Made by a program: the position numbers and the translations under genes. Below, piece by piece: positions 8,078-25,385 of a stretch of DNA of 64,000 nt (the first letter of the stretch is position 1; the number at the start of each line of letters is the position of its first letter). The notes beneath the pieces were generated by a model. The model saw only the letters and a list, made by a program, of their open reading frames with translations. It searched no databases and had not been told where the DNA came from. Source of the DNA: an uncultured Alphaproteobacteria bacterium (GTDB taxonomy: Bacteria; Pseudomonadota; Alphaproteobacteria; Rhodobacterales; Rhodobacteraceae); the NCBI GenBank assembly GCA_963757495.1, contig CAVWRZ010000013.1, forward strand, positions 9,281 through 73,280, given 5' to 3'.

Positions 8078-9480
8078 ATGCGGGATCTCGACGCCTACGT
8101 CGGTCTCGACGTGCACGAGGAAACGATCACGGGAGCCATCGCCGCGGCTGGACGAGAAGGTGAAGTGCGATCATGGGGAGCGATCCCCGACGAGCGCACG
8201 GCGATCGATCGAATGCCGGAAGAGGATGGCCGCGCGCCACCCGACGGCTTCGTCTGCATATGAAGCGGGGCCCTGCGGATACGGCCTTCACAGACATCTC
8301 GGTTCGAAGGGTATCGACTGCCGTGTGACGGCACCTTCGAAGATGCCGGTGACCGCGACGCATCGTCGACACAAGAACGACACCAAGGATGCGGTTGCGC
8401 TTGCGCGTCTTCACCGCGCCGGAGAGCTGACCTGCATCTGGACGCCCGACGAAGGACATGAGGCGATGCAGGATCTGGTCCGGGCCCGGCGGATCGCGTC
8501 CCACCAGGTCCGCAAGGCCCGGCAGCGGATCGGCTGCTGCCTTTCGAAGTACGGCCGCCGTTACGGGCGCAAACGATGGGGCCGGACACATCGGACGTGG
8601 CTTGCGGACCTTCGGTTTGCCCATGCGGCGCAGCAGTCCGCGTTGCAAGGCCATGTCATCGAAGGAGAGCAGGCCGTGGCCCGCCGCGCGCAGGTCGACG
8701 GACGGATCGAGGTGCTTGTGCCGGAGTGGCGCTCGGCGCCCGTGGTGCGAGACCTCGCCGCGCTGCGTGGCGCCAGCGTGGCAATCGCCTCCGCAGTGGC
8801 CGCCGAGGTGGGCGACTTCTCGCGCTTCGCCGGTGCCCGACAGCTCATGAGCTCCCTTCGGCCTCGTGCCGGGGGAATACTCCAGCGGCGGGACGACACG
8901 GGCGCGCGGCATCACGAAGGCAGGGTTCTCGGACGTTCGGGCCTTGCTGTCCGAGGCAGCGTGGCTCTACCGGCTGCGACCCGAAGTCGGACACTGGCAG
9001 CGGACCTGTCGGGGAGATCCGTCCCGAGCGGCGCAGGATATCGCCTGGAAGGCACGGCCGAGGCTGCATGGTCGATATCGCCGCCTGACCCGGACGCGCC
9101 GGAAGCGCAGCCCCAGGTCGCCGTCACCGCCGTGGCCCGTGAGCTGGTCGGCTTCATCCGGGCAATCGCCGGGAATGTGGAGGAAACCGCGATGGCGAAC
9201 CGACTGTCCGCACCGCCGCCGGATCATCACGCCGCCGGTGGTCCGTATGCAGGGCGTCGAGACCGGTCCGAGGAAATCCCCGGGCAAGAATCCGGAGCCG
9301 GTCGCCATGGCCGGATCCGCGCAGGTAGACCGGGGCCGCCCTCCATGCCGCATCATCATCATGGGGCCGAACAGGATCCCCGAACGAGAGTTCGAGCAAC
9401 CGTCGCGACGACCTCAGTGCCCTGCACCCGCCCATCGGCGAAGACCTTCGACGTTCCGACCACGTATCGGGCGACCGATC
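8078..9480 (+). mobile_element. IS110 family transposase pseudogene with ~280 bp downstream non-coding region
   Basis: AGGAG RBS plus ATG 8078; YVGLDVH, YEAGPCGYG, NDTKDA (DEDD core), EVGDFSRF, EYSSG, GITKAG and VTAVARELVGFI motifs; frameshifts near 8220-8250, 8860 and 9110. Confidence 0.85.
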
Positions 9481-9499
9481 GTCTGCGTTCATGGAGTCG

Positions 9500-10400
9500 A
9501 CGACGGTCATGAGGGTCACGAGGGTCCTGGGGTCCTTCCCACGGAGACGGAGCGCACGGCACGTTCGGCCGTGTCGTCGTCGTCGTCGTCGATCTCGAGG
9601 GAGGCGTGGTCGGGACAGGGCCGGAGCCGCCTCATGCGGGCCGGGGCGCAGCGGATCGCGACGGCGAGGGGCGGAGATGCCGGGAAGCCGGGCGTGGAGC
9701 CGCGCCTGGAGGTCGTCGAAGACAGGCGCGACATTCGCCTGCCGGATCCCCACCCGCCCGTCCGGCGGCGAGCCCCGCGCGTCCTTCTCGACCGCGTGGA
9801 GCTGCGCGATGCGCGCGATGGCCTCGTCCCCTGCCCGGCCGTGCAGGTCCGCATGCCCGGGAGGGGGGCATGGCCGACCCTCGCCCTGTGGACGGGGGGC
9901 CCTGTGGACGGGGGGCCCTGTGGACGGGGAGCCCTGTGGACGGGGAGCCCTGTGGCACCACCGGTCCGGGACCCGTGGCGAACGGACCTGCGGCGCACAT
10001 GCCGCGCCCGGCGGTCCATCGCGAGGCGATGTCACGGGAGGGGCCCTGCGTCCCGTCCTCCTCGACCGGCCCCCCGGACCGATCGATCGCTGCGCGCCCG
10101 TCTCCGGACCCTCGCGGATGTCGCCGGGGCGGGAGAGGTGCCCGAACCCGGCATGGCAGCGGGCAGGGTATCCGCGCGGCGATGCCCGCAAGGAGGGAGC
10201 CCCGCCGGCCCGGGCGCGCGGGCGAGCCCCGCGCGCCACGCAGCACGACGGGCGGGCGCGGAGCGATGCCGGCCGGCGGTGGGGAACCGCCCCGTTCGCC
10301 ATGGGTCTCGCACCGATGGCGACCACATGGCTCACCGCTCGTCCCGGCCGTACGCCCGGAGCCGCGCCGTCGCCGCCCTGCCGGTGCAGGGGGCCGCCAT
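9500..10400 (-). mobile_element. IS66 family TnpC central remnant, heavily interrupted by short inserts
   Basis: AHVRR, GSA..DEAIARIAQLHAVEKDARG, LEID...TAERAVR.V.VGR; (GTC)6 expansion at ~9573-9590. Confidence 0.7.
9884..9955 (+). repeat. Tandem repeat, 4.5 copies of a 16-bp unit CCCTGTGGACGGGG(G/A)G
   Basis: Units start at 9884, 9900, 9916, 9932 and 9948 (partial); no spacers between them. Confidence 0.95.
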
Positions 10401-10459
10401 CTTCACCGGGGTATCGTCCATTGCCCGGCGGGCGATCGCGCGGCGATCTGCCGAACGGG

Positions 10460-11491
10460 CGGCAGGGATCCTGCGCGGGTCGATGCGGCCACCGCACCGC
10501 GCGCCGTGCGCGAGTATCTCGACACCTTGGATGAGGCCGCCTTCGGCGCGGCCTCGGAGGTAGCGCCGAAGTTCACCTCCTTCTCGGATCCTGCCAGCCA
10601 GTGCCTCTCGGGACATTGCTGTGCAATGCCCTGACGGTAGTAGACCGCGGCGCGCAAGGGTGAGCCGATGGAGCGCCAATGGTCCGAGCGACATTGGCGA
10701 ACGCCTTCTTCGCCTATTCGACGCACTATCTGATCGATACCGACCACGCTATGATCGTCGATGTCGAGGCGACCCGGTCGATCAGACAGGCCGAAGTCGG
10801 ATCCGTCCGGACGATGCTGGACCGGGTCAGGGCCACGTTCGATCTGCATCCGGAGCGTATCATCGCGGACACGGCATATGGGTCCGGCCCGATGTTGGAC
10901 TGGCTGGTGGAGCGGAAGATCGCGCCGCATATCCCGGTCATTGACAAGGCAGGCCGCACGGACGGCACCTGGTCCCGAACCGACTTTGCGTGGGACGCGA
11001 AGAACAACCAATACGTTTACCCGGAAGGCGAACCTCTCAAGCAATTCCGCCGCAACTACTCGGACTCGAAACGCGGCCCGACTGACAAGGGTATCGCGAA
11101 ATATCGTCTGCCAGGCCTGCCCACCTAAGCCGAGGTGCTGTCCGAACGCAGATGCCCGCAAGATCACTCGCGAAGAGCACGAAGACGCCCGCCAGGTCGC
11201 CCGCGACATTTCAAGGCTGACTCGTACGTCACCTCGATGCGGCTCCGAAAGAAGGTCGAGATGCTCTTCGCCCATCTCAAGCGCATCCTGTGCCTGGGAC
11301 GACTCCGATCACGCGGACCGAACGGCGCAAACGACGAATTCCTCCTCGCTGCAACCGCCCAGAACCTCCGCAAACTGGCCAAGATGTTCCCCGCCCAGCA
11401 ACGGCCGAAGCAAGGCTGATATCAAAGGCGCTCGCGCCCCGTCGGCACGTCACTTTCTGCACAAGCAGCATGCCCTATTTTCCACAGGATC
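10460..11491 (+). mobile_element. IS1182 family transposase pseudogene (5'-truncated)
   Basis: APRAVREYLDTLDEAAFGAAS..PKFTS.SDPASQ, AFFAYS.HYLIDTDHA.IVDVEATRSIRQAEV, IADTAYGS, RKKVEMLFAHLKRIL.LGRLR.RGP.GA.DEFLLAATAQNLRKLAK. Confidence 0.88.
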
Positions 11492-11817
11492 GGCCGTTTT
11501 CTGCCCTTCCCGCTTTGTATCCAGTCTTCTCCAGCGAGCCTTCAAGGGAAGCTACCAAGGCTTCAATGCTATCGCGCTGGCTATCACCAAGGACAGCGCG
11601 GAGCCCATTTTCGTTGGAAATATTCTGCGTGCGGGTGTTGGCGTCGAAAAGAAGGCAGCGGCGGCCAATGCCAACAGGTCTCGGCCAATCCCACGAAACC
11701 TTGTTATTTCAATAGGTAGACTAGTGTTTTCCGATATTCAAAAAAATCTTTTGACAGGGGTGCGCAAGTAAAACCGCCGGCTTGCGCCCTCTTATGCCCC
11801 ATAGGCAGGAGGTCGTC

Positions 11818-11894
11818 TGGCGGGCCCAGAAGGATTCGAACCCTCGACCTGCCGATTAGAAGTCGGCTGCTCTATCCAGCTGAGCTATGGGCCC
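11818..11894 (-). tRNA. tRNA-Arg (anticodon UCU)
   Basis: Reverse complement GGGCCCATAGCTCAGCTGGATAGAGCAGCCGACTTCTAATCGGCAGGTCGAGGGTTCGAATCCTTCTGGGCCCGCCA folds as a cloverleaf; loop CTTCTAA, GTTCGAATC T-loop, encoded CCA. Confidence 0.97.
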
Positions 11895-11934
11895 CCGCCC
11901 CCGTGCATGCCGCGAACCTCCCCCCGGGCGCAAG

Positions 11935-13254
11935 TCACAGATGCCCGCCCACCAGCTCCGCCACGTCCACCCGCGCGCCCAGTCGCGACGCCAGCAGGAA
12001 CATGCCCCCTACCTTGCGCTGCAGGTAGAGCACGTCGATGGGCACCGGCGGCGGCACGAAGCCCGACCGCGCCAGCGCCTCCCCCTCCGCCTGCAACCGC
12101 ACGGGCAGGTCTGTGCCGGCGAAATCGAAGCCACCGGGCGCGCGCAGGGCGTCGAACACCATCTCCATCATCCGCTTCAGCTGTGCTCTGTGCCCGTCGC
12201 TCAGCGTCTCCGGCAGCATCCCCAGCCGCCCCGCCGCCGCCTCCGCCCCGCCCATGTCGCCGTCGAGCCCCGCACGCAACAGCCGTCGATACTCACCCGT
12301 CACCTCCACCGAAATCTCCCGCGTGGCCCCGAAGTCCAGCAGCACGATCCGCCCCGTTCCGGCCTGCCAGCGGTAGTTGGCGAAGTTCGGATCGGTTTGC
12401 ATCACGCCCCAGCCGAAGGCCTCGCGCAGCGTCAGGTCGATCAGGTCGCGCGCCACCCGGTCGCGCACTTCCTGCGCTTCCTCCGCCACCGCCTCGATCG
12501 GCGCACCCTCCAGATAGGTCATCGCCAGGATCTCGCCCGTCGACCAGTCCGGCTGCACCTGCGGCACCACGAACCGCGCATCCCCGTCCAGTAGCGCGCC
12601 GAACCGCGCCAGGCCCCGCGCCTCCGCCGCGTAATCCGTCTCCTCGTGCAGCTGCACCCGAGCCTGCTCCAGATACGGTGCCAGATCGAACCCCTTCGGC
12701 AGCAGCCCGGAGAGCCGGATCAGCGCTCCGACGTTCGCCACGTCGCTGTCGATGCTCGCCGCCACGCCCGGATATTGCACCTTGATGGCGAGGTCGCGCC
12801 CATCCCGCGTCCGCGCCCGGTGCACCTGCCCGATGCTCGCCGCCGCCATGGGCCGTACGTCGAAACTCTCGAAGCGCGTCAGCCATCCCGCGGGCCAGTT
12901 CGATGCCAGTACCTTCTTGAGCTGCGCCGGCGGCATCACATGCGCCCCGTCGCGCAGCCGCGCCATGATCCCCGTAAGCTCCGGCGGCAACAGGTCGCCC
13001 GTGTCCATCGACACCAGCTGCCCGATCTTCATCGCCGCCCCCCGCATCTGCGCGAGCTGCTCGGTCACGCGGGAGACGTTGGCCGGAGTCAGCAGCAGCC
13101 CGCGCAGGTCCGGCCGCTCGCCCCGCCCCAGCTGCCGCGCCCCGCCCAGCGCCATGCGCCCGGCGACGCCCGCGCCGAGCCCGCCCATACGCGCCAGACG
13201 GTTCAGCCGACCGGACGGGACGGCCAGCGCTCGCCGTTCGCGCTCGTCGCTCAT
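11935..13254 (-). CDS. ABC1/AarF/UbiB family atypical kinase
   Basis: MRGAAMKIGQ, AAASIGQVHRA, LAIKVQYPGV, ETDY, MQTDPNFANY and LLDFGA motifs. Confidence 0.9.
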   Translation of the reverse strand: MSDERERRALAVPSGRLNRLARMGGLGAGVAGRMALGGARQLGRGERPDLRGLLLTPANVSRVTEQLAQMRGAAMKIGQLVSMDTGDLLPPELTGIMARLRDGAHVMPPAQLKKVLASNWPAGWLTRFESFDVRPMAAASIGQVHRARTRDGRDLAIKVQYPGVAASIDSDVANVGALIRLSGLLPKGFDLAPYLEQARVQLHEETDYAAEARGLARFGALLDGDARFVVPQVQPDWSTGEILAMTYLEGAPIEAVAEEAQEVRDRVARDLIDLTLREAFGWGVMQTDPNFANYRWQAGTGRIVLLDFGATREISVEVTGEYRRLLRAGLDGDMGGAEAAAGRLGMLPETLSDGHRAQLKRMMEMVFDALRAPGGFDFAGTDLPVRLQAEGEALARSGFVPPPVPIDVLYLQRKVGGMFLLASRLGARVDVAELVGGHL

Positions 13255-13766
13255 TCGTAGAGGCGCAGGTCCGAGACGGCCACGTCGGCGTGGAACTCCC
13301 GCCCGATGGCGATGATCCCCAGCCGCCGCAGCCCGGCCGCGTCGAAACTCGCATCGGTCCGGTGCGGCTCCAGCTCGGAGAAGGGCACGCGGACGGTCGT
13401 CCATTCCGCGGGAGCCTCGAAGGAGTACCGGAAGCTCTGCCACGGCCGGGTCAGCACGTCCGTCCGCGCGCGCAGTTCGTAGGTCTCGCCGTTGCCGTGG
13501 ACGTCGAACGTCACGCCGGTGGCCGTCGTCGCATCCGCTCCCACGTCGAAGTTCATCTGCACGAACCCGCCGTCGTTCTTCAAAGAGACGTCGCCGGTCA
13601 GCCGCGTGGCCTCGCGCCCGTCCACGACCTCCCGGTCGATACGGCCGGTGGAGACGCCGCCCATCACGGTGTCGGCCTCGAAGCGCCAGTCGGGGGTCAG
13701 GGTCATCGCATCCTCCGCGAGGGCAGGTGTGGTCAGCAGCAGGCTCAGGATCGTGGCTTTCAACAT
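13251..13766 (-). CDS. CIA30/NDUFAF1 family protein with predicted signal peptide
   Basis: DTVMGGVSTG, GDVSLKNDGGFVQ, WTTVRVPFSEL motifs; N-terminal MLKATILSLLLTTPALA. Confidence 0.85.
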   Translation of the reverse strand: MLKATILSLLLTTPALAEDAMTLTPDWRFEADTVMGGVSTGRIDREVVDGREATRLTGDVSLKNDGGFVQMNFDVGADATTATGVTFDVHGNGETYELRARTDVLTRPWQSFRYSFEAPAEWTTVRVPFSELEPHRTDASFDAAGLRRLGIIAIGREFHADVAVSDLRLYE

Positions 13767-13848
13767 GGTTGGGGATCTAGCGCACCGCGACACCGCGCCC
13801 AGCCCGGCCGCGTTGCGGCCGCCCGGCGCAGCGCCTAAGCCGCGCCCC

Positions 13849-15027
13849 ATGCGATACGATGCGATCATCCTCGGCGCGGGCGGCGCGGGCCTGATGTGCG
13901 CCGCCGTGGCCGGACGGGCGGGCGCGCGGGTGCTGGTGATCGACCACGCGCCGAAGGCAGGCAAGAAGATCCTGATCTCCGGCGGCGGGCGCTGCAACTT
14001 CACCAATACCGGCACCGAGCCGGGTCGCTTCCTGTCCGAAAACCCGCATTTCGCCAAATCCGCGCTCGGCCGCTACTCCCCGTGGGATTTCCTCGATCTG
14101 ATGCAGGCGCACGGCATCGCCTGGCACGAGAAGACGCTGGGGCAGCTCTTCTGCGACGGCTCCGCGCGGCAGATCGTGGCGATGCTCCTCGACGAATGTG
14201 CGCGGGGCGGGGCCGAGATCCGGCTGTCCACCCAGATCGGCGAGGTCGCCCATGCCGACGGTCTCTACCGCGTCGCCGGGGCCAGCGCGCCGACCCTCGT
14301 CGTCGCCACCGGCGGGCCGTCGATCCCGAAGATGGGCGCGACCGGCGTTGCCTACGACATCGCGCGGCAGTTCGGCCTGAACGTCGTCCCCCCGCGCCCC
14401 GCCCTCGTCCCCTTCACGCTGGGTGACGGCGATGCGGCCTTCCGCGACATCTCCGGGGTCGCCGTCCCCGCCACCGCACGCACCGGCTCCACGTCGTTCG
14501 AGGAAGCCGCGCTCTTCACCCACCGCGGCCTCTCCGGCCCCGCCGTCCTTCAGATCTCCTCCTACTGGTCGCGGGGCGATCCGGTTGCGCTGAATGTGAT
14601 GCCTAACGCCGCCGCCCACTTGCGAGACGCCCGCCGCCGGATGCCCCGCTCGGGCCTCAAGGCCGCGCTGACCGAATGCCTGCCCAGGCGTCTGGCCGAG
14701 GTTCTGGCCGACCGCATCGCCCTGCCCACCGAACTGGGCAATGCCTCCGACGCCACGCTCGACGAGGTAGCCAGCCAACTCACCGCGCTCACCTTCCACC
14801 CGACCGGCACCGAAGGCTACGCCAAGGCCGAGGTCACCGCCGGCGGCATCGACACCGCGGCGCTTTCGTCGACCACGATGGAAGCCCGCGCCGTCCCCGG
14901 CCTCCACGTCATCGGGGAAGCGGTGGACGTGACCGGCTGGCTCGGCGGCTACAACTTCCAGTGGGCCTGGGCCTCGGGCTGGGCCGCCGGCACGGCCATC
15001 GCTGCCCGCCCCGTGCAGCAGCGTTGA
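13849..15027 (+). CDS. HI0933/BaiN family NAD(P)/FAD-dependent oxidoreductase
   Basis: IILGAGGAGL, GKKILISGGGRCNFTN, LFTHRGLSGP, AEVTAGG, GEAVDVTGWLGGYNFQWAWASG. Confidence 0.92.
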   Translation: MRYDAIILGAGGAGLMCAAVAGRAGARVLVIDHAPKAGKKILISGGGRCNFTNTGTEPGRFLSENPHFAKSALGRYSPWDFLDLMQAHGIAWHEKTLGQLFCDGSARQIVAMLLDECARGGAEIRLSTQIGEVAHADGLYRVAGASAPTLVVATGGPSIPKMGATGVAYDIARQFGLNVVPPRPALVPFTLGDGDAAFRDISGVAVPATARTGSTSFEEAALFTHRGLSGPAVLQISSYWSRGDPVALNVMPNAAAHLRDARRRMPRSGLKAALTECLPRRLAEVLADRIALPTELGNASDATLDEVASQLTALTFHPTGTEGYAKAEVTAGGIDTAALSSTTMEARAVPGLHVIGEAVDVTGWLGGYNFQWAWASGWAAGTAIAARPVQQR

Positions 15028-15160
15028 GTTGCGGCCAGACTGACGATACAAGCTAACCCTTCGAGTCCCAGGAATTTAACCTTTGACAGAGGATCCGGCC
15101 AACTCCGTCTCAAGATCCGGCCAGTCGATCTCCTATTCATTTTCGCAACGTGACAAGAAC

Positions 15161-15186
15161 AAAAAGGGCCCACCGAAGTGAGCCCT
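15161..15186 (-). terminator. Possible intrinsic terminator (minus strand) downstream of the IS1595 gene
   Basis: AAAAA-GGGCCCAC-CGAA-GTGAGCCC: imperfect hairpin with an A-tract on its left. Confidence 0.45.
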
Positions 15187-15227
15187 GAGGCGGGTTGATC
15201 ATTTTCTGGCTGATGACGAGAACCCGC

Positions 15228-17830
15228 TTATCCACAAGACGAAGCGGAGGCATTAGGCCAACGAAGCCCGTATTCCTTTGATCGGCGCATCTGCTTTCCG
15301 ACGGCCCCTCGAAGCAGGGACCGCGTCTGCATGACCACCGGGACCGGTTTCCAGATCGTCGTGGGATTTCCCGTTAGGTTCCCGAATTTCGTGGTCCATT
15401 GCATGTAGATCTCGCCTGCCGGATCGCGGTCGTTCCAGCGCCAGATGATCTCGTCGAGGTAGCGCTGGAGGTGCTTGCGGCCGAGATCGTGATAGACGCC
15501 GACCAATGCGCGGGCCATCTGCGAGATCACCGCCTCGGCCGTGTTCGCGTGAGCGCCAGTCTCGGGATTTGCGTATTCGTTCTGGCTCTGGATGACGGAT
15601 CGATGCGAGGCCATCGTCTTCCCGAAGCCGATGTAGCTCGTGCTTCCGTCCGACATCAGCCTTGTCGTCTGCGGATCGATCCATTCCTTGAGAACGGCCT
15701 CGAGAGCGGGCCCTTGATCGCCCGGAACGACTCTTGCGCGCGCCTGTCCGTCCCGTGAGGCGGCCACGAAGACGATCGGCTTCCCACTGCCCTTTCCCCT
15801 TGGATTATTGACTTCTGCAAGAGATTTCGGCGCACCGCCGATGAAGGCGTCGTCGGTCTCGACGATATCATCCAGCGGCAGCGGATCGCATGTGCTGGGC
15901 TCCGCCCGGTCGGCCCCTGACCGCTCCACTGGAGCGTTCACCGCATTGTGGACAGGGCCTCACTCCATCATCTCGCGTATGGCATGACCTATGTGGAGTG
16001 CCCCCCGTTTCACCGGACAGTCCGGCTGGGGTTGAGCGTTTCGCGGAACTCGGCGGGCGAGCGCATGCGGAGCGCGGAATGCGGATGGACGGTGTTGTAG
16101 TCTGTGATCCATCCGGCGACGAGATCGAGCACCGTGGCGGCGTCGGGCAAGGGCGTGACGCGGACGTAGTCGCGCTTGAGGGTCTTGACGAAGGACTCGC
16201 TCATTCCGTTGCTTTCGGGCGACCGGACCGGCGTGAGGCAGGGGGTGAGGCCGAGGGCCGTGGCGAAGTCGCGCTCGCCATCGTCCTCGGACCGATGGCG
16301 GACGACGGCTCGCCCTTGGCGGTGTAGCAGCTGCCGTTGTCCATTGCCCGGCAGGGTATCGCGCAGCGATGTCCCGAGAGGGGGACAGATGCTCGACCCG
16401 GTGCGGGGCGCGACCGGTGCCGAAGCGGCGCTCGACGGCGGCGAGCATCATGTCGCGGATGTCGGAGCCGGAGATGCCCGCGCCCGCCACCGCGACGTGG
16501 GCTGCGATCTCGCGGTCGAAGGCGTCGATGAGCGAGCCTTGTCCGCCATCGGTCCGAGAACGATGGTCGAGCGCGACGCGGACCTTCTCGCCGTTCCGAC
16601 AGGCGATCTCGAGGGCGTCGGAACACCGGCGCAGGTTCGATGCCATCACCGCGACGCGGCCGTCGTGGACACGGCCCTCGCGTCGTCCGGTGGAGCGCTC
16701 CAGCGTCAGACCATGCTGGCCGAGAATGCGCGAGCCACGCGCTTGCGGTTGACCGGTTCCAGTCCTGAAGCCCGCCGCTCCCGGTTCAGCAGCGCCGTGA
16801 GGCGGCGGTGGCCGTAGGTCGGACGCTGGTCGACGAGGCGGCGGATGGCCGGCAGCAGCTCGACGTCGGCGGTCTTGCGATAGGAGCCGCGAGGCTTCGA
16901 CGCCCCGGACGCCCGCACGTGGAGCTGGGACCGGCTCACCTCCAGGGCCTCCGGCGCACAGCGGCTCACCGGGGAACCGTCCCTGGGCGGCGACGGCAGA
17001 TGCCACGTCTGTTCTTTGCCCGTGCCTGGTCCAGCGCCTCGCGCAGGATCTCGTTCTCCATCGTCTTGCGGCCAGGCATGCGCTCCAGGGCGCGGACCTT
17101 GTCCTCGAGCTTGGCAGGCCTCGGACGCGCCCACCACCGGTTCGTTCGACCCCACGGCCATCGCTCCCCCCTCGTCCATGAGGCGCCGCCAACGGAACAG
17201 CAGGTTCGGAGCCACGCCGCCCGCGCCGCGCCACGGCGGAGACGGACTCCCCGGAACCGTTCGTCGGCTTACGCGGCCCCATAGGGGCCACGGTCCTCCT
17301 CACCCTCGATGATGCGCAGCGTCCGTTGCGCCGGCCAGTAGCGGCGTCCGGCAAGGCCGGTGATCACCTCGACACGGGGATGCGTCTCGCCCGGCATAAG
17401 CATGTCCTCAAGCACAGGCTCGAGCCTTCCATGATCATGCCGGACTGTCCGGTCGAAATGGGGGGCAGTCCACCATCTTCCACGCAGTCTTCTGGTTCAC
17501 CCCCGGCAGCCGTCCCATCACGACCAGCGAAATACCCTTGGATGACGTCAGCACGGGAAACATCGCGGTGATCCAGATCCGAAGGTCGAGTTTCGTAGCG
17601 TGAAGGGGCGTCTTCGTCGTGATCGTGAACTGGCCGCGGCATCCCGCTTCGCCACACTGGTAGAGCCCGGGTCGGGATGACTTCCCCGCCAACTTGATCG
17701 AACGAACACTCCCGCAATTCGGACGATACCGCCCGTCAGCCCAGATGAGGCCTTTAAGAAAGACGCGCGCGTGATGCCCGTTCGGCATCTTGCGCCACAC
17801 GTCCTGGATGGATCTGAACTCGTCGATCAC
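15228..17830 (-). mobile_element. IS1595 family transposase pseudogene, split by a nested IS3-family element
   Basis: N-part: zinc-ribbon-like LYQC..CRGQFT..TKTPLHATKL...TSSKGIS...NQKTAWKM; resumes after the insertion as GHAIREMM; C-part IVETDDAFIGG, LMSDG, H.SVI.S..EY, ANTAE, GVYH....KHLQRYLDE..WRWN. Confidence 0.85.
15994..17472 (-). mobile_element. IS3 family (IS2-group) insertion sequence, degenerate, with terminal inverted repeats
   Basis: IRs TGGACTGCCCCCCATTTCGACCGGACAGTCCGG (from 17472, minus) and TGGAGTGCCCCCCGTTTCACCGGACAGTCCGG (from 15994); OrfA VAPNLLFRWRRLM..GRKTMENEILREAL; OrfB YGHRRLTALLNR, IDAFDRE, DNGSCYTA, ESNGMSESFVKTLKRDY, YNTVHPHSALRMRSP. Confidence 0.92.
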
Positions 17831-18001
17831 GCCACATCTCGCCAGCAATGTGAGGGGACCGGCGATATTGGCTATCCTGGCCCAAAACGAAGCCGGCTCG
17901 CCATTTCCACGCAGAATTGCCAGAAGACATTCAAGAACCGTGAACAATTGGACCGTTATTTGTATCCGCTTCTTCTGCTGGATAAGCGGGAACGAAAACC
18001 A

Positions 18002-18700
18002 CTAGGGGATCGCGCTCCCCACGCCGTCCGGCCCCGATCTCACCGAGACAGCAGTCAGCCCGACTCTACCCGGCCGCCGGCTCATCCCGCACATCATGTC
18101 ATCACCAGGAATCCGAGAGACGAAGTCTGGCCGTCGTCCCGGAATTCCGGAGAACCGTCCCGGAAATTGGCGCAGCCGTGATGTCGGAAGACCCCGCTCT
18201 GCAAACCGGAAGATCCTCGATCCAAGTGAGAAACGCGTCAAGATGCCGACGCGAAAGACAACTTTCCGGACCGTACCGGGGTCCTCGACCGGTACGAGCG
18301 GCTTGAGCAGCCCCGCTCCATACAGGGACCGGACCCGGCCCTTCGAGTCACCGATGGCCTTCGGTACATCCTCGAGCAGTACGGCGTCGGCGAGATCAGC
18401 GCAGAAGGTTTCCATCTCCTCGGCCGGAAAGACCAATCTTCCACTCTCGGCGTCCGACGCTCCAGTCGGGACGAGGCCCAGTTTTCTGGAGAAGCCGGGA
18501 GAGGTGCCTGCGATCCATGCCGGTCTCAGCCGACAGTGTAACAATGGAATGAAACTTGCGCCGGATCATCTCGACCCCAAGACCCACTTCGCCGCCATCG
18601 ACGGCGGAGTGCTCGACGGTGTGGGCGCGAAGCACGTCCCGGATCGGACCCGGGTCGATCATGTTGGCCCCCCAGTCCAGCCCGTCGTAGAGCCGCCCGT
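18002..18700 (-). pseudogene. C-terminal fragment of a probable TniQ-family (Tn7/Tn5053-like) protein, truncated by an IS1182 remnant
   Basis: YGRLYDGL...DPGPIRDVLRAH...RRKFHSIVTLSAETGMDRRHLSRLL resembles C-terminal regions of alphaproteobacterial TniQ proteins as recalled; lower GC than flanks; N-terminal TniQ domain absent. Confidence 0.45.
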
Positions 18701-18744
18701 ACGTTGCAAGGGGGCCAGCCTGGACCGCCGTGGCCGTGGCGGCG

Positions 18745-19465
18745 GTGAGCCACGTCGGCTTCGGCCCGTGACGGACCTCGACGCGATCGATCATCGTCCG
18801 CGCGGTGCCGATCCCGGCCTGCCGGATGGACCGGGTCGCCTCCACGTCCACGATGACGGCGTCGTCGGGGTCGACGATGACGGCGTCTTCGGGGCCGACG
18901 AGGCAGTCGTGCGGGCAGGTGAACACCGCCGGACCCTTCCGGGCGGCCGTCTGTCGGCTGGCGGGACCCGGGTGCGACACGGACCTGGACCTGGGCCTGG
19001 GCTTGGGCCTGGGCCTGGCCGGGCCGGCCGCGCCGAACGCGTTCGCGCATTCTGTCGTGCCGATGGCGTTCATGCGCTCACCGTCGAGGGGCTCGAGAGA
19101 CCCGCGGACCGCGCGCGGTGCTTCATAGGGGTCGATGGCACCCGCATCCCACCTCGCCCGGGCGCTCGAGCTCGAGGCCTGTCCACGTCCGCCATCCCTC
19201 CCGGGACCTCGCTGGCGCAGGGCCCTGCCGGGCAATGGATCAGACTTGCATCGACGGCGAACCCGGCACCGCCGACCAGACCCTCCTCGATGCAGCGCGT
19301 CACGACGCCCCCGAAGAGCAGCCGCAGCAGATCGCCGTCGCGAAATCCTCCCCGCCCCCCGGAATCGAGCGAACCAGGAGACTTGCCCCATCGCAACAGG
19401 GACCTCTGCGACGAAATGGACCCAGAGCGACCGATGTCGCGATCCGCATGAATGGTCGCTTCCGG
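18745..19465 (-). mobile_element. IS1182 family remnant (copy 1), inverted relative to the copy at 22.5-24.2 kb
   Basis: FRDGDLLRLLFGGVVTRCIEEGLVGGAGFAVDASLI...IVDVEATRSIRQAGIGTARTMIDR; near-identical to the reverse complement of 22510-22670 plus 23015-23540. Confidence 0.85.
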
Positions 19466-19596
19466 GATGCTGAACGTCAGGCGGGCAACATCGCTGCGGC
19501 CGGCTCGTCCATAAGCATCGCCTTCATCCCGGCCGCGCGCGGCGGACCTGATCTCTATACGGAGACAGTGCCCATCTCCCGCCCACAGGCGGCATG

Positions 19597-21414
19597 TCAT
19601 CGGAGGATCGCGGGGCCGAGGATGGCGAAGAGGCCGAGTGCACCGAGCGCCGAGCGCCGCCAGATGGGGCCAGGCGCGATTACGGCGCGGCTTACTGCCA
19701 TGAGACCGCCTGCGAGGAGCACGAAAGCCACTGCCGCGGCACCCGGCTCTTCCGCAGCCCGCAGTATCGCGGGCTGGGCGATCATGCCGAGCGGAATGAG
19801 GTAGAGCCCGAGACCGAGCGCCATCGCGGTGAGCGCCACGCGCAGCCAGTTCTCGCCCACCATGCCCGCGGCGATGAAGACCGCACCGCAGACGGGGGGG
19901 GTTATGGTTGAGAGAAGCGCGAACCAGAAGACGAAGAGGTGCGCTTGAAGAGGCTCGAGACCGAGCCGCTCCAGGGCCGGGCCGGCGACGGAGATGCAGA
20001 TCACGTAGGCGGCCGTGGTGGGCACCTCCATCCCGAGGAGGAGGCAGGCAAGCGCGGTCAGCAGAAGCGCGGGCCAGAGCGAACCGCCCGAGCCCGCGAG
20101 GATGGCTGACGTCATCTTGATCCCAAGGCCTGTGATTCCGAGGACGCCGATCACGATCGATGCGCATAGGATGATCGCTCCGATCATCGCCACCTGCCGT
20201 CCCGCCGAGAGGCATGCGGCGGAGAGGCGTCCGGGGAAGCGGGCCAACGCAAGGCCCTGTCCGTCGAATGCGAGCAACGCGGTGCCCGCCGCGATGGCCG
20301 CGACGGCGGCGTATTGCGGCGTGAAGCCGGCGGCGAACATCATCGCCAGAAGGACGGTGAAGGGCACGAGGAAGAAGGCCGAGGTCACGATTACGTCGCG
20401 CCGCGCAGGCCGGTCGGCCTCGGCCAACCCTCTCAGATCGTGTCGGGCGGCGAAACCGTCGATGCCGGTCCATACCGCCCAGAAGTAGAGCAGCGCCGGC
20501 AGGATCGCGGCGGCCATGATACCGGTGTAGGGCACTCCCGTCAGCTCGACCATGACGAAGGCACCCGCGCCCATCAGGGGCGGCATGATCTGACCACCGG
20601 AGGACGCGACCGCCTCGACGGCCGCCGCGAGCCGTTTGGGGTATCCCAGACGCGTCATGGTCGGCAGCGTGACGGCACCGGTGGAGGCGACGTTGGCTGA
20701 CGCGCTCCCCGATATGGAGCCGAAGAGCGCCGAGGAGAGGACCGAGACCTTGGCCGCGCCGCCCCTGGCGCGCCCTGCCGCCGCGGCCGCGACATTCATG
20801 AAACCCGCTCCCGCTTCACCGGCGTTGAGGATCGCACCGAAGATGACGAAGATCGCCACGACCCCGACCGAAACACCCGTCAGAGAGCCCCATATTCCGC
20901 CCTCGGAGATGGTCAGCGTGCCGAGGAACGAAGCGAGCGGAAGGCCCGCGTGGCCGAACGTGCCGGGGATGTGCTGGCCCAGGAGACCGTAGGCGAGCGC
21001 TGCGGCAGCGACGGCCGGTAGCGGCCATCCGATCATCCGGCGCGCACCCTCCAGCACCAGCGCGAGGAGGAGGACCGCAAGTGCGACCTGACCCGGACCT
21101 TCGAGGAAACCGTACTGATTCCGCAAGGCGACATGGTTCCAGGCGATCCAGAGGCAGGCGGCGATGCCCCCGCCCGAAAGCGCATAGCCCGCCGTGGCCT
21201 GCGCCTGCGTCGTGGCCGCAGCGACGAAGACCCAAGGTAGCAGAAGCGCCATGTGCAACGGCCGCGCGACCAGGTTGGGCACGAGCCCGTAGAGGATCAG
21301 GCCCAGATGCGCCGCGACCGTCAGAGCGCCGAGTGCGACCCAAACGGCCCGTCGCCCACGGGGATCGGCGGGTGCGAGGGGCGCGGCGGGAACCGTTCGG
21401 AGGGGACTATCCAT
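19597..21414 (-). CDS. TRAP transporter fused permease (4TM/12TM fusion type)
   Basis: Many TM helices; AAKVSVLSSALFGSISGSASANV, EAVASSGGQIMPPLMGAGAF, LGMEVPTTAAY, ITPPV motifs. Confidence 0.92.
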   Translation of the reverse strand: MDSPLRTVPAAPLAPADPRGRRAVWVALGALTVAAHLGLILYGLVPNLVARPLHMALLLPWVFVAAATTQAQATAGYALSGGGIAACLWIAWNHVALRNQYGFLEGPGQVALAVLLLALVLEGARRMIGWPLPAVAAAALAYGLLGQHIPGTFGHAGLPLASFLGTLTISEGGIWGSLTGVSVGVVAIFVIFGAILNAGEAGAGFMNVAAAAAGRARGGAAKVSVLSSALFGSISGSASANVASTGAVTLPTMTRLGYPKRLAAAVEAVASSGGQIMPPLMGAGAFVMVELTGVPYTGIMAAAILPALLYFWAVWTGIDGFAARHDLRGLAEADRPARRDVIVTSAFFLVPFTVLLAMMFAAGFTPQYAAVAAIAAGTALLAFDGQGLALARFPGRLSAACLSAGRQVAMIGAIILCASIVIGVLGITGLGIKMTSAILAGSGGSLWPALLLTALACLLLGMEVPTTAAYVICISVAGPALERLGLEPLQAHLFVFWFALLSTITPPVCGAVFIAAGMVGENWLRVALTAMALGLGLYLIPLGMIAQPAILRAAEEPGAAAVAFVLLAGGLMAVSRAVIAPGPIWRRSALGALGLFAILGPAILR

Positions 21415-21468
21415 CTCGCTCGCCTGCGCGAAGGAGTGGCCGGGGCGAGCGCTGCCCCGGCGGCGCGA

Positions 21469-22413
21469 TCAATTGACCGGCACAGCCACGCCGATCTCTT
21501 CGTAGTAGCGCAGGGCACCGGGATGGACCTGCGTCGTCACGGCACCCATCATGTCGGGCGTCACGCCGTCCCACCACGCGGCCGATCCGCCAAGGGTCTC
21601 CTTGTTCTCCCAGAAGGCCTTGGTGAGGTCGTAGGCCGTATCGTCCGCCATCGCCGCGGTGGCGAACGCGACGACGGGCAACGAGGTCGTCACGACGTCC
21701 GTGTCCTGTCCCGCGTAGGTGCCGGCGGGGATGACGAGGCGGGTGCGCCCGGTCTCCTCGACCTGCGCGTCGGTCATCGACAGGATCGTCACGCCGGTCG
21801 AGGCGGCGGCCTCGATCACGTTCGGCGCGGGGTAGGAGCCGGCGGTCACGAACCCGTCGATCTGCCCGTTCTTGAGGGCGGCGACGGCATTCGACAGTTC
21901 CGCGTCCGCGACGTTCACGCTGTCGGCGACGCCGAAGAGGCCGAGGTACTTCTCGCCTTCGGTCGCGCCGAAGCTGCCGGAGCCGAGCAGGATCGTCTTG
22001 CCGGCCATGTCCTCGAAGGTCTCGATGCCACTGTCGGAACCGACGACGAAGTGCATCGTGAGCGACGGGATCGGAAAGAGCGCGCGGATGCCGTCGAACG
22101 CTTCGCTGCCCTTGTCCTCGAACGGACCGCTGGCGGATTGCGCGGCGGCGATCAGGGCCGGGGGGGTGGTGAAGACGTAGTCGGCCCCGCGCGCCCGCAC
22201 TTCCATGACGTTCTGAACGCTGCCCTGACTTTCCTCGACCGTGACGGCGGCAATGCCCTTGAGGGCTTCCGAAAGCTGGACGCCCATCTGGAAATAGGCG
22301 GTGCCGGCCTTGGCCGACTTGTAGGTGATCCGTTCCTGCGCGGCGGCGGGCAGCGCTATGGCGGCAAGTGCCGCGGCAGTGACTGCGGTTGCGATGGTGG
22401 CCCTGATGGTCAT
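21469..22413 (-). CDS. TAXI family TRAP solute-binding protein
   Basis: Signal peptide ending in AAA; ESQGSVQN, GSGSFG, ALKNGQIDG, HPGALRYYEE motifs; upstream of the fused permease. Confidence 0.9.
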   Translation of the reverse strand: MTIRATIATAVTAAALAAIALPAAAQERITYKSAKAGTAYFQMGVQLSEALKGIAAVTVEESQGSVQNVMEVRARGADYVFTTPPALIAAAQSASGPFEDKGSEAFDGIRALFPIPSLTMHFVVGSDSGIETFEDMAGKTILLGSGSFGATEGEKYLGLFGVADSVNVADAELSNAVAALKNGQIDGFVTAGSYPAPNVIEAAASTGVTILSMTDAQVEETGRTRLVIPAGTYAGQDTDVVTTSLPVVAFATAAMADDTAYDLTKAFWENKETLGGSAAWWDGVTPDMMGAVTTQVHPGALRYYEEIGVAVPVN

Positions 22414-22509
22414 GGCGTATTCTCCCTATTTGGGCCGACGGTGACAGCCAGGCCACCCATGTCAAGGTTTGGCCGCCGAGAAGATCGACACGCGGGAGTG
22501 AGCTGCGGG

Positions 22510-24240
22510 CCGTGGGATCACCGGAAGCGGCCATTCATGCGGATCGCGACATCGGTCGCTCTGGGCCCATTTCGTCGCAGAGGTCCCTGTTGCGATGGGG
22601 CAAGTCTCCTGGTTCGCTCGATTTCGGGGGGGGCGGGGAGGATTTCGCGGCGAGGGGCGGGCGGACGGCTCCGGCGACGCGGTTCCACGACTTCGATCCG
22701 GAGGCGCAGGTGCCGGGCGACCGTCCATTGCGTCGGGTCGGCCGGTTCCTCGACAGGGAGCGGATGCGCGCGCGGCCCGCACCGTTCCGGAAGCCACATC
22801 GGCCGCCCCTCGGTCGACCCCGGCGACCCCGGGCCGATCGTGCGGATGCTGCTGGCCGGATACCCGACGGGCATCCGCTCCGAGCGCCGGCGGTGCGACG
22901 AGGTGCATCCGAACCCGGCGCATCGGCGCATCGGACCGTCTCGGCCTCGACGGACGTGTCCCCGATCGCCCGACCGATCCGGAAATGCGGGCATGGGCCC
23001 CAGGTTCCGCGACGGCGATCTGCTGCGGCTGCTCTTCGGGGGCGTCGTGGACGCGCTGCATCGAGGAGGGTCTGGTCGGCGGTGCCGGGTTCGCCGTCGA
23101 TGCAAGTCTGATCCATTGCCCGGCAGGGCCCTGCGCCAGCGAGGTCCCGGGAGGGATGGCGGACGTGGACAGGCCTCGAGCTCGAGCGCCCGGGCGAGGT
23201 GGGATGCGGGTGCCATCGACCCCTATGAAGCACCGCGCGCGGCCCGCGGGTCTCTCGAGCCCCTCGACGGTGAGCGCATGAACGCCATCGGCACGACAGA
23301 ATGCGCGAACGCGTTCGGCGCGGCCGGCCCGGCCCAGGCCCAAGCCTAGGCCCAGGCCCAGGTCCAGGCCCGTGTCGCACCCGGGTCCCGCCAGCCGACA
23401 GACGGCCGCCCGGAAGGGTCCGGCGGTGTTCACCTGCCCGCACGACTGCCTCGTCGGCCCCGAAGACGCCGTCATCGTCGACCCCGACGACGCCGTCATC
23501 GTGGACGTGGAGGCGACCCGGTCCATCCGGCAGGCCGGGATCGTCCCCTTCGTTCCGGTTTTCCATTGCCCAACAGGACATCGCGTGCCGCGATGCCCCG
23601 AGAGGGGACAAGTCCAAGCGAACCGACGGCACCCGGTCGCGGTCGGACTTCGAGTGGGACGAGCAGAACGACCGCGACGTCTGCCCCGGAGGCCACGAGC
23701 TGCTTGGGTACCGGCGCAACCACTCCGATCCGACGACGGAAGGACCGTCGGCCGGGCGGCAGAAGTACCGGGCCCTCGCATCCGACTGCAGGGCGTGCCC
23801 GTCGAAGCTCCGCTGCTGCCCGAAGGCCGCCGCGAGGGACATCACCCGCGAGGAGCACGAGGACGTCCGGGGCGTCGCCCGGGAGTGCGTGGCCTCCGAG
23901 GTCTGCAGGAAGATCGCAGGCCCCGGGCGCAGACAGGTCGAGATGCTCTTGGGGCACCTCGCGCGCATCCTCGGGCTCGGCCGCCTGCGCTTGCGGGGGC
24001 CATGCGGTGCCGGGGACGAGTTCACCCTCGCCGCCACCGCCCGGAACCTCCGGACGCCCGCGAAGCTCAGGCCGCGGACGACCCCAGCGGCGGCCACGAG
24101 GTGATCCGAGAGGCCGGAAAGGGCGAAACGACCGACCTGGCCGGGCCCGGGCCCGAGGCCGAACCCGCGACGAGCCCCCAGATGGGCCAAACCACCGCCT
24201 CGAGCAGCCGACTTTCTTTACGAGATGGGCTTGAAGCAGA
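22510..24240 (+). mobile_element. IS1182 family transposase pseudogene (copy 2, near full length, degenerate)
   Basis: FHDFD.EA.VP.D, GRPSVDP...MLLAGY..GIRSERR.C.EVH, FRDGDLLR, DKSKRTDG..SRSDFEWDE, VEMLLGHL.RILGLGRLRLRGPCGAGDEF. Confidence 0.85.
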
Positions 24241-24266
24241 CCTTGGACCCGTTCCGACAGTCTACC

Positions 24267-25385
24267 CTAATCCACCACCACCGCCGGCATCCGCAGGGTG
24301 AACGTAGTGCGCGCGGTATTTGACGTAACGTCGATGCCGCCGTCGTGGCCGCGGGCGATTTCGCTGGCGATGAAAAGGCCGAGGCCGAGGCCGTTCTGGG
24401 AATGGCGGGCGTCGGAGCGGGTGAAGGGCTGGAAAAGCATGGGGCGGGCGTCGTCGGGGATGGGGTCGCCGGCGTTGACGACCGACAGGACGAAGGCACC
24501 GTCCTCGAGCGCGGCGGTGACGTGGATCGGCTGTCCCGGGTCGCCGTGGGTGACGGCGTTTGCGAGCAGGTTCGACAGCAGCTGGCCGATGCGGGCCGTG
24601 TCGCAGCGCAGGATGGCGTCGAGGGTGTAGTCCTCCTCGACCCTGACCGTCGGATGCCCGAGACGGATCTCCTCGACGACTTGCCGCAGGACGGGCAGGA
24701 GGTGCGTGTCGTCCGTCGGCTCCACCGCCAGCCCCTCGCCGAGACGGGCGCGGGCGAAGTCCATCACGTCCTCGATCAGGGCGGACATGCGGTCGAGCGA
24801 CTGGCGGGCGGTCTCGATGAAGGCCTGGGAGCGTTCGGACTGCGGCTCGCGGGAGATGAGGCGCAGGGCGGAGCCGACGGCGGCGACCGGGTTGCGCATG
24901 TCGTGGCCGAGCACGGCGATGAACTGCTCGCGGAGGCGGGCCTCCTCGGAGCTGGACCGCAGGGCCGCGTCGCTGGTGAGGAGCGCCGCATCGCTGGTGA
25001 GGAGCGCCGCGTCGCTCGTGCGCAGGGCGGCGGCCTGCTCCTGCTCGTCGGTCACGTCGCGTCCGCTGCAGAAGAAGAGCCCGCCGTCGGGGATCGCGTT
25101 CCAGGAGATCCACCGATAACTGCCATCGGCGTGACGGTACCGGTTGCGCATCTTGAAGACCGGCCTCCCGGCAAGCAGTTCGTCGAACGAACGGCGGGAG
25201 GCGTCCAGGTCCTCGGGGTGGACGAAGTCGAGGAAGACGCGACTTTCGATGTCCTCCGGCGTGCGCCCGAGGACATCGAACCAGGCCGGGTTCGTGTCGA
25301 ACAGCAGGCCGCGGTCGTCGGCGACGCCGAGGAGGTCTGGCGTCAGCTTCCAGGCAAGGCTCCCGGTATCGGCATTCGCTGGCAA
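24267..25385 (-). CDS. PAS domain sensor histidine kinase (cytoplasmic)
   Basis: PAS (NPAW, FVHPED, RYRHADGSYRWISW, GRDVT), H-box LGHDMRNP, N-box LSNLLANA, G-box GLGLGLFI; no TM segment. Confidence 0.92.
   Translation of the reverse strand: MPANADTGSLAWKLTPDLLGVADDRGLLFDTNPAWFDVLGRTPEDIESRVFLDFVHPEDLDASRRSFDELLAGRPVFKMRNRYRHADGSYRWISWNAIPDGGLFFCSGRDVTDEQEQAAALRTSDAALLTSDAALLTSDAALRSSSEEARLREQFIAVLGHDMRNPVAAVGSALRLISREPQSERSQAFIETARQSLDRMSALIEDVMDFARARLGEGLAVEPTDDTHLLPVLRQVVEEIRLGHPTVRVEEDYTLDAILRCDTARIGQLLSNLLANAVTHGDPGQPIHVTAALEDGAFVLSVVNAGDPIPDDARPMLFQPFTRSDARHSQNGLGLGLFIASEIARGHDGGIDVTSNTARTTFTLRMPAVVVD
24964..25026 (-). repeat. Three tandem 21-bp units encoding (L/R)TSDAAL heptads in the kinase linker
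   Basis: GCCGCGTCGCTGGTGAGGAGC / GCCGCATCGCTGGTGAGGAGC / GCCGCGTCGCTCGTGCGCAGG. Confidence 0.93.

Follow-up and report, generated by a model that had tools for sequence, protein, structure and literature searches.

Elements of the IS200/IS605 group of insertion sequences (IS) need the Y1 transposase TnpA, carry two different end hairpins and insert cleanly 3′ of a tetra- or pentanucleotide. Rickettsia palindromic elements are more than 100 nucleotides (nt) long and typically lie in frame in ordinary genes, and the integron attC and CTX phage attP sites are cargo-carrying sites that IntI or XerCD uses with fixed partner sites. Repetitive extragenic palindromic (REP) sequences and REPINs are extragenic, bear a GTAG or CGTC tag, usually occur as inverted pairs and co-occur with a RAYT gene (PMC3116915, PMC8266576, PMC3733652). 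Bacterial MITEs (miniature inverted-repeat transposable elements) typically far exceed 41 nt in length, carry fixed terminal repeats that match a parent IS and produce target-site duplications (PMC2229807, PMC3184786). Here we describe family B, a hairpin repeat of about 41 nt in a 64,000-nt stretch of DNA (the window) from an uncultured member of the Rhodobacteraceae (assembly GCA_963757495.1, contig CAVWRZ010000013.1, positions 9,281 to 73,280). Comparison of filled and empty sites confirmed, at the level of sequence, that family B is a real mobile element, which replaces four to five target bases without duplicating any.

Like REP/REPIN sequences, which are repeats of 20-40 nt, family B is a single imperfect hairpin present in many copies, non-autonomous, strand-specific and lacking a terminal inverted repeat/duplication signature. 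It differs in being mostly single, intragenic within mobile elements and untagged (consensus GAGCC), in replacing target bases, and in having no Y1_Tnp in the high-copy genomes searched. With MITEs it shares short length, non-autonomy, inverted-repeat ends and a position that is sometimes intragenic and sometimes in frame, but it is only 41 nt long, its tips are variable yet complementary, and 4-5 nt are deleted with no duplication. A search of the window's genome and the collected loci for a longer unit bounded by two family B arms, as expected of a parent IS, gave none, and with neither duplication nor parent IS found, family B is apparently not a classical MITE. A single-stranded hairpin as the likely substrate, a short specific motif, one orientation and the lack of duplication recall IS200/IS605 elements and their palindrome-associated derivatives, whereas their Y1 TnpA, two end hairpins and clean insertion were not seen in family B. 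Rickettsia palindromic elements are likewise palindromic, lie inside protein-coding genes and are sometimes read through as an extra peptide; in contrast, family B shows no frame preference, is restricted to mobile DNA and adds a net 34-39 nt. As in attC and CTX attP, structure outweighs sequence, stems covary, some stem bases are unpaired and function resides in one strand, but family B has no cargo, uses many target sites and entails target loss. In its workings it is probably closest to REP/REPIN or IS200/IS605-derived hairpins, from which it departs in partner enzyme, tag, location and clean insertion, and we file it as a miniature non-autonomous hairpin element with an unusual integration signature and habitat.

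The full unit is xy-GAGCC-ATTG-n2-4-CGCCATTGG-TYCGAG-nn-CAATGGCG-A-y′x′, 40-43 nt (about 41), in which the two closing pairs are free in sequence yet complementary (GC/AGC, GT/AAC and other end types). In order to define its ends, the joined flanks of every copy were searched against the window's genome (3.28 Mb, 69% G+C) and the collected loci, which gave 53 pairs of filled and empty homologues at 74-89% identity. Position-wise identity to the empty homologues was about 0.85 in both flanks, dropped at x and y (0.13-0.19) as well as at y′ and x′ (0.19-0.26), was 0.66 at the A between, and was back to 0.85-0.89 from the third base outward, which indicates that the two covarying pairs are part of the element. 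In 24 pairs the replaced stretch was 5 nt long and in 21 it was 4 nt (overall range 3-6), with a net gain of 34-39 nt (mode 36). No target duplication or flanking direct repeat was found at family B copies; 4-5 target bases were missing instead. A preliminary description had given 39-nt copies, a loss of about 3 bp of target and a host left one codon short, and had offered replacement-type insertion or mis-set boundaries as the cause. Both causes turned out to be true, since the 3′ end lies two bases farther out (A-y′x′) and replacement persists with the corrected ends; the actual loss is 5, sometimes 4, bases. The short codon was reproduced with the 39-nt boundaries at 10660 and 23270, because these omit y′x′ and five host bases are gone. 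Alignment of flanks to empty elements, which had been suggested as a check, revealed neither clean insertion nor a target-site duplication, and since empty homologues exist at 53 sites, the host IS families do not carry the motif natively.

The cleanest case came from a metagenome scan for IS3 relatives, in which one filled copy was found among 80 loci (L181); its element is 42 nt long, and 16 of 16 empty homologues (79-94% identity) read CATG/AGGCC/GG, where slashes enclose the replaced bases. An IS66 copy in the window's genome (C8:18115) reads GACA/GC..AGC/GAG, here with the element between the slashes, and two empty copies read GACA/TCACC/GAC and GACG/TGACC/GAG. Within the window, 5 nt are replaced in the IS1182-like transposase that hosts the copy at 10660-10702, for which the paralogue near 23412 reads AAGG/GTCCG/GCG, and AGGCC is replaced in the IS1182-like gene that hosts the copy at 23270-23310, for which the paralogue near 10532 reads GATG/AGGCC/GCC. 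Other readings of the ends were rejected. The GCGAGC at both ends can be taken for a direct repeat, GC being self-complementary, and GT/AC, AT/AT, AC/GT and TC/GG ends reveal an inverted arrangement. A clean insertion into a palindromic 5-mer, with GAGCC...GGCG as the inserted unit, was discarded as x, y, y′ and x′ match empty sites at chance level only, and terminal pairs copied from the flanks by template switching would predict about 55% identity at these positions, where 13-26% was observed.

The target can be written R-G-R/(T)SANN/G-S, or as GGATCANNGC. The genome-wide collection and target logo proposed earlier were carried out, and the logo (125 copies) gave R-G-R on the left, where 94% of copies have a purine at -3 and 61% have G at -4, and G-S on the right, where 87% have G at +3, followed by C or G. 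An A is central in the replaced stretch of 34 of the 53 empty sites, and in the 24 pairs with five bases replaced the first base is T or A and the second C or G. Family B has a single fixed orientation relative to this asymmetric motif. By a rough estimate the target carries about 9-10 bits of information, corresponding to one or two sites per 1-kb gene, so that the same position in related IS copies is hit repeatedly by different subtypes. Such sites include MLD/NA of IS3 orfA (L097, L108, L113, L059) and LW/..DIT of IS3 orfB.

These conserved short flanks, together with the variable number of lost bases (3-6) and the failure to find an enzyme, could also be explained without dedicated transposition. 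The hairpin would stall replication, microhomology-mediated template switching from an existing copy would use R-G-R and G-S as donor flanks, and spread would occur by hitch-hiking on ISs. We regard this as unlikely, since losses of 4 or 5 nt in 45 of the 53 pairs are too regular for microhomology jumps, the ends are precise, identity to empty sites is back to 0.85 only 3 nt outside the element, and terminal complementarity is held across subfamilies. On this evidence the complementarity of the ends must be kept by selection on what we take to be a folded mobile form. End-pair type was furthermore associated with interior subtype (chi-square p = 5e-8), indicating that ends are inherited and not made anew at each insertion.

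Anatomy and covariation were assessed in 134 distinct copies from the window's genome and other genomes, across which the unit reads xy-GAGCC-ATTG-(1-4 nt)-CGCC-ATTG-G-TYCGAG-nn-CAAT-GGCG-A-y′x′. One word recurs in three segments, as GCCATTG in S1 and S2 and as its complement CAATGGC in S3. Pairing of S3 with S1 forms a 13-bp outer helix that includes xy/y′x′ and the last two spacer bases with nn (xy-GAGCC-ATTG-nn paired to nn-CAAT-GGCGA-y′x′) and encloses a conserved 15-nt loop (CGCCATTGGTYCGAG), which can instead pair with the 3′ arm; the alternative pairing of S3 with S2 gives an 8-9-bp inner hairpin. The 8-bp hairpin drawn in the preliminary description is possible, but the main fold is the outer helix, which is the minimum-energy fold of the common subtype (ViennaRNA; z = -4.9 for locus L010). 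Five stem positions covary in support of this helix. At x-x′ the pairs were GC 79, TG 22 and AT 18, with pairing in 92.5% against 56% in column shuffles, and at y-y′ they were CG 78 and TA 37. The last spacer base and first nn base paired in 95.5% against 47% in column shuffles (GC 68, CG 56), and the second-last spacer base and second nn base gave TA 61 and GC 45. A third comparison of pairing with column shuffles gave 93% against 68%. Change of ATTG to ATCG is mirrored by CAAT to CGAT (TA 75, CG 23), and this T/C change is mirrored in all three segments. The covarying stem and conserved loop first noticed in the window thus hold across the whole set, and the stem variant at 10660-10702 is compensated (GATG / CGCCAATG / CATTGGCG), extending to the third (5′) segment, which is GATG.

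A tandem G.A/A.G mismatch beside the two closing pairs is kept in 123 of the 134 copies. Position x-x′ has G.T in 24 copies and A.C in two, which means that the structure can form only on the GAGCC...TYCGAG...GGCGA strand, and such a strand-specific fold points to a single-stranded form, DNA or RNA. If the form were RNA, a small structured, tRNA-minihelix-like transcript might be retroposed, with target deletion as in target-primed reverse transcription. G.U-compatible pairs and tandem G.A mismatches are typical of RNA, GGTTCGAGCC resembles a T-loop, and the small target deletions vary in length. This explanation is nevertheless highly improbable in our view, because no reverse transcriptase was found above cut-off in the window's genome or the five next-richest genomes, no Rfam family (tRNA included) matched, and copies are full length with no A-tail or 3′ truncation series. 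The Rfam searches gave no match to family B at E<=5 over window positions 9000-24500, nor at E<=0.1 in four loci with a perfect-stem variant. An origin from tRNA was rejected separately, as the genome's tRNA-Lys has GAGCC and a TTCGAGC loop in a different register and there was no Rfam tRNA match.

Family B sits almost exclusively inside other mobile elements. The core pattern CGCCATCGGTCCGAGNACGATGGCG matched three times in the window against none in 100 shuffles, and a profile built from genome copies identified 41 copies in the window's genome at E<1e-3, which group to about 22 independent sites. All 41 are in mobile-element DNA, and most of those examined fall inside transposase genes or next to them; 31 are flanked by multi-copy DNA (10.5% of the genome), and the other ten lie in single-copy sequence marked as transposon-related by Pfam matches or motifs. 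Flanks at 134 of 169 sites are homologous to DNA of a different genome. Hosts include IS3 (rve, rve_3), IS21 (IstA, IstB), IS66, IS5 (DDE_Tnp_1_5), IS256 (Transposase_mut), IS1182 (DDE_Tnp_1_6), a Tn3-family transposase and the neighbourhood of a resolvase gene, and many of the examined insertions break or lengthen the transposase gene. Nesting also occurs, with one family B copy inserted in the S2 arm of another at C15:97881-97961 and C2:462453-462489 (loci L124 and L132); the C15 composite occupies the LW/DIT site of IS3 orfB.

Relative to the host gene, about 52 copies are sense and about 71 antisense (about 58% antisense), with the three frame classes about equal, counts that are based on open reading frames (ORFs) and are noisy and unreliable in DNA so GC-rich. 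Choosing the coding frame by G+C content at third codon positions was likewise too noisy in IS DNA. The net gain is a multiple of three in 23 of the 53 filled/empty pairs, and a gain of 36 nt can leave the host gene open. Individual in-frame cases exist, and RefSeq annotates as intact an IstA with the insert LAIVLGPMADNGS and an IS3 OrfA with the insert GETLSAIGPRTMS. Many other plasmid copies have no annotated gene beneath them, which fits pseudogene calls, as these are omitted from that annotation table. An intron or translational-bypass element was rejected given that both orientations occur within one gene and there is no frame preference.

The exact pattern was present in at least 117 stretches of species-representative genomes, and among the matches listed most were from Rhodobacterales (Paracoccus, Rhodobacter, roseobacters), with single cases in Azospirillum, Bosea, Sphingobium, Parvibaculum and Breoghania. 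Of 151 genera sampled from the window's own family, 62 had at least one copy, where a reversed-pattern control gave one match overall, and the window's genome was the richest of those searched, with 33 core-pattern matches. Family B was also found on 31 plasmids and on 12 viral contigs, the latter too few to be informative. The loci in other genomes, more than 117 in number, have unrelated flanks; these loci, the approximately 22 sites in the window's genome and the 53 filled/empty pairs are together what is generally asked of a mobile element. No description of family B was found in Rfam or in the full-text literature searched, and it is apparently undescribed across many Rhodobacterales-type bacteria.

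Elements at the same site in IS copies of different genomes were on average 93% identical, against 75% for the flanking transposase sequence, and three such pairs were 100% identical at 72-73% flank identity. This would suit a functional module selected inside mobile elements, for instance a site for binding or recombination, or something that regulates the host IS, and mostly inherited with the IS. The occurrence of some copies in frame within genes annotated as intact is consistent with such a role, and CGCCATTGG-TTCGAGC-CCAATGGCG is laid out as arm, spacer and arm, like the core site of a tyrosine recombinase, and is similar to a tRNA T-arm, a likeness that is only a lead. The copies, however, lie in both orientations and all frames and often break the transposase, their net length is a multiple of three in fewer than half of the pairs, and compensated stem changes favour base pairing over a symmetric protein-binding site. 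Different subtypes at one site in related IS copies moreover require repeated insertion, meaning that repeated hits do occur. We consider the module doubtful as an account of the family.

The reading we prefer, and judge to be about evenly balanced between right and wrong, is that family B is a non-autonomous miniature element whose single-stranded hairpin integrates by cut-and-replace. The mobile form would be a single-stranded hairpin with its 5′ and 3′ ends side by side at the foot of the stem. An enzyme acting in trans would join both ends to one target strand at R-G-R/(T)SANN/G-S, the joined hairpin would take the place of the 4-5 bases between two cuts, and the insertion would then be fixed by replication. 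Copies would persist and spread chiefly within insertion sequences, transposons of the Tn3 type and small intergenic repeats, where insertions may be harmless to the cell and could be carried between genomes.

Several results weigh against this cut-and-replace scheme. We infer movement from the diversity of sites, and no filled/empty polymorphism above 94% identity, excision product or single-stranded intermediate was seen. The 93% against 75% identity at shared sites could reflect either repeated hits on the same sites or constraint in place. Orientation showed no bias relative to GC skew, taken as a marker of replication strand, in the window's genome (15 against 16). Y1 HUH transposase (PF01797) was found in none of six high-copy genomes, the window's included, with control genomes positive; no reverse transcriptase scored above the family cut-off in any of the six richest genomes; and Ku was absent from all five high-copy genomes searched. 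Clustering of 2,993 ORFs around 129 loci returned transposase families only, with no other recurrent neighbour, and we know of no documented precedent for one-strand cut-and-replace among bacterial transposons. The Y1, reverse transcriptase and Ku negatives also weaken readings based on REP/RAYT, retroposition and end-joining capture.

The Y1 result bears most directly on the idea that family B is a REP/REPIN-type or IS200/IS605-derived hairpin moved by a Y1 HUH transposase (RAYT or TnpA). Its similar size, single imperfect hairpin, strand-specific fold and lack of target duplication are shared with such elements, but Y1_Tnp was not found in any of the six genomes, neither a GTAG nor a CGTC tag is present, most copies lie within genes of mobile elements and not between genes, and target bases are lost, unlike in peel-and-paste, which makes this origin extremely improbable. 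The HUH nuclease partner suggested in the preliminary description is accordingly unsupported for the Y1 type. The sole HUH-transposase match found in the window's genome is a fragment of a broken IS91-type (Y2 HUH) transposase with an internal TGA stop at C4:48966-49214, about 2 kb from a family B copy.

If cut-and-replace is true, family B would be among the smallest mobile units known in bacteria, and replacement of 4-5 bases without duplication would be the outcome of no standard bacterial transposition chemistry, suggesting that an enzyme, or a further use of a housekeeping enzyme, has gone unrecognised. Among the genes of IS3, IS21, IS66, IS5, IS256, IS1182 and Tn3 elements, family B accounts for hundreds of odd 12-13-residue inserts and transposase "pseudogenes", which is relevant to annotation in Rhodobacterales and other Alphaproteobacteria. 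Its confinement to other mobile elements provides a tractable case of parasites of parasites, and its copies are natural markers with which to trace IS lineages between genomes.

The copies in the window are listed in Table 1. Of the seven named in the preliminary description, those at 10294, 10660, 16273 and 16532 are sound, whereas that at 9943 is degenerate and the 23270/19041 pair is decayed. The unit at 10294-10335 is found again in the window's genome at contig C4 position 51145 and contig C16 position 362228. The copies at 16273-16313 (sense) and 16532-16572 (antisense) share the OrfB of one IS2-like element of the IS3 family, where taking out a net 35 nt at the former restores YTAK-GE-RDFATALGL and a net 36 nt at the latter restores VRVALLIDAFDRE; both removals bring back the alignment with IS2 InsD. 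This broken element is present three times in the genome (window, contig C11 at about 397.8-398.1 kb and contig C15 at about 99.0-99.4 kb), indicating that it multiplied, or was duplicated with its surroundings, after it had been disabled.

Table 1. Family B and family A copies and their shared host gene in the window (window coordinates; E values refer to the family B profile)
Feature	Position	Strand	Description
Family B copy	10294-10335	-	good, 42 nt, ends GT/AAC, loop variant TGCGAG, E 1e-6
Family B copy	10660-10702	+	good by eye, 43 nt, ends GT/AAC, missed by profile
Family B copy	16273-16313	-	perfect, 41 nt, ends GC/AGC, E 2e-12
Family B copy	16532-16572	+	good, 41 nt, ends GC/AGC
Family B copy, degenerate	9943-9983	+	E 2.2
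Family B copy, decayed	23270-23310	+	ends GT/AAC, 3′ half/arm degraded, not found by profile
Duplicate of decayed 23270 copy	19041-19081	-	within inverted segmental duplication, not found by profile
Family A copy	16340-16385		
Family A copy	19223	-	
Family A copy	23117		
Family A, weak match	7683		
Family A, weak match	9854		
IS3-family (IS2-like) orfA/orfB, host gene	15960-17354	-	broken by two family B copies, one family A copy (~16340-16385) and a 1-nt indel

A second repeat, family A, is about 50 nt long (..TCCAC-TGCCCGGCAGGG-[variable covarying hairpin]-TCCCGAGAGGGG-A...), and scanning the window's genome plus the collected loci with a loose pattern gave 77 matches, of which a few are probably chance. 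The two families have a CCGAG motif, a covarying closing stem and hosts in common. The earlier view that family A is unrelated in sequence to family B does not wholly hold given the shared motif and stem, and the observation that both occupy the same hosts does, as in the IS2-like orfB that carries both. There the family A copy adds a net 41 nt and lies about 25 nt from a family B copy. A bolder possibility is that families A and B act as hyperparasites on mobile DNA, or serve a host system as its tools. They would be small hairpin plugs that a new single-strand reaction of the cut-and-replace kind places in transposons by preference, with a widely conserved enzyme that is not a classical transposase, and the restriction to mobile DNA would stem from the mechanism and not only from selection. 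We think this rather unlikely.

A perfect-stem variant of family B (GTCGCC...GGCGAC), which lacks the G.A mismatch, occurs once or twice per genome. It lies inside small intergenic repeats between housekeeping genes (loci L147, L148, L160, L161, L011, L079, L111 and L112; genome G138). G138, another genome of the family, has 70 copies of the host repeat (TTCACGTTGCCRTAACAACTCC...), and in two of these the perfect-stem variant stands where TGCG would be, a further especially clear case of replacement.

Other features adjoin the family B copies of the window. The array at 9883-9955, 4.6 repeats of a 16-nt unit (GCCCTGTGGACGGGGA), amplifies in tandem the 5′ portion of the degenerate copy at 9943-9983 and lies immediately downstream of the C-terminus of an IS110-family transposase (ORF start 8866). 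The inverted segmental duplication (18950-19200 against 23150-23400) contains the decayed copy and an adjoining GGCCTG/GGCCCA-type hexanucleotide repeat tract, and flanks a DctM-type TRAP transporter gene (19597-21414, minus strand). A tRNA gene at 11821-11894 (minus strand; Rfam 70 bits) directly adjoins the IS1182-like region.

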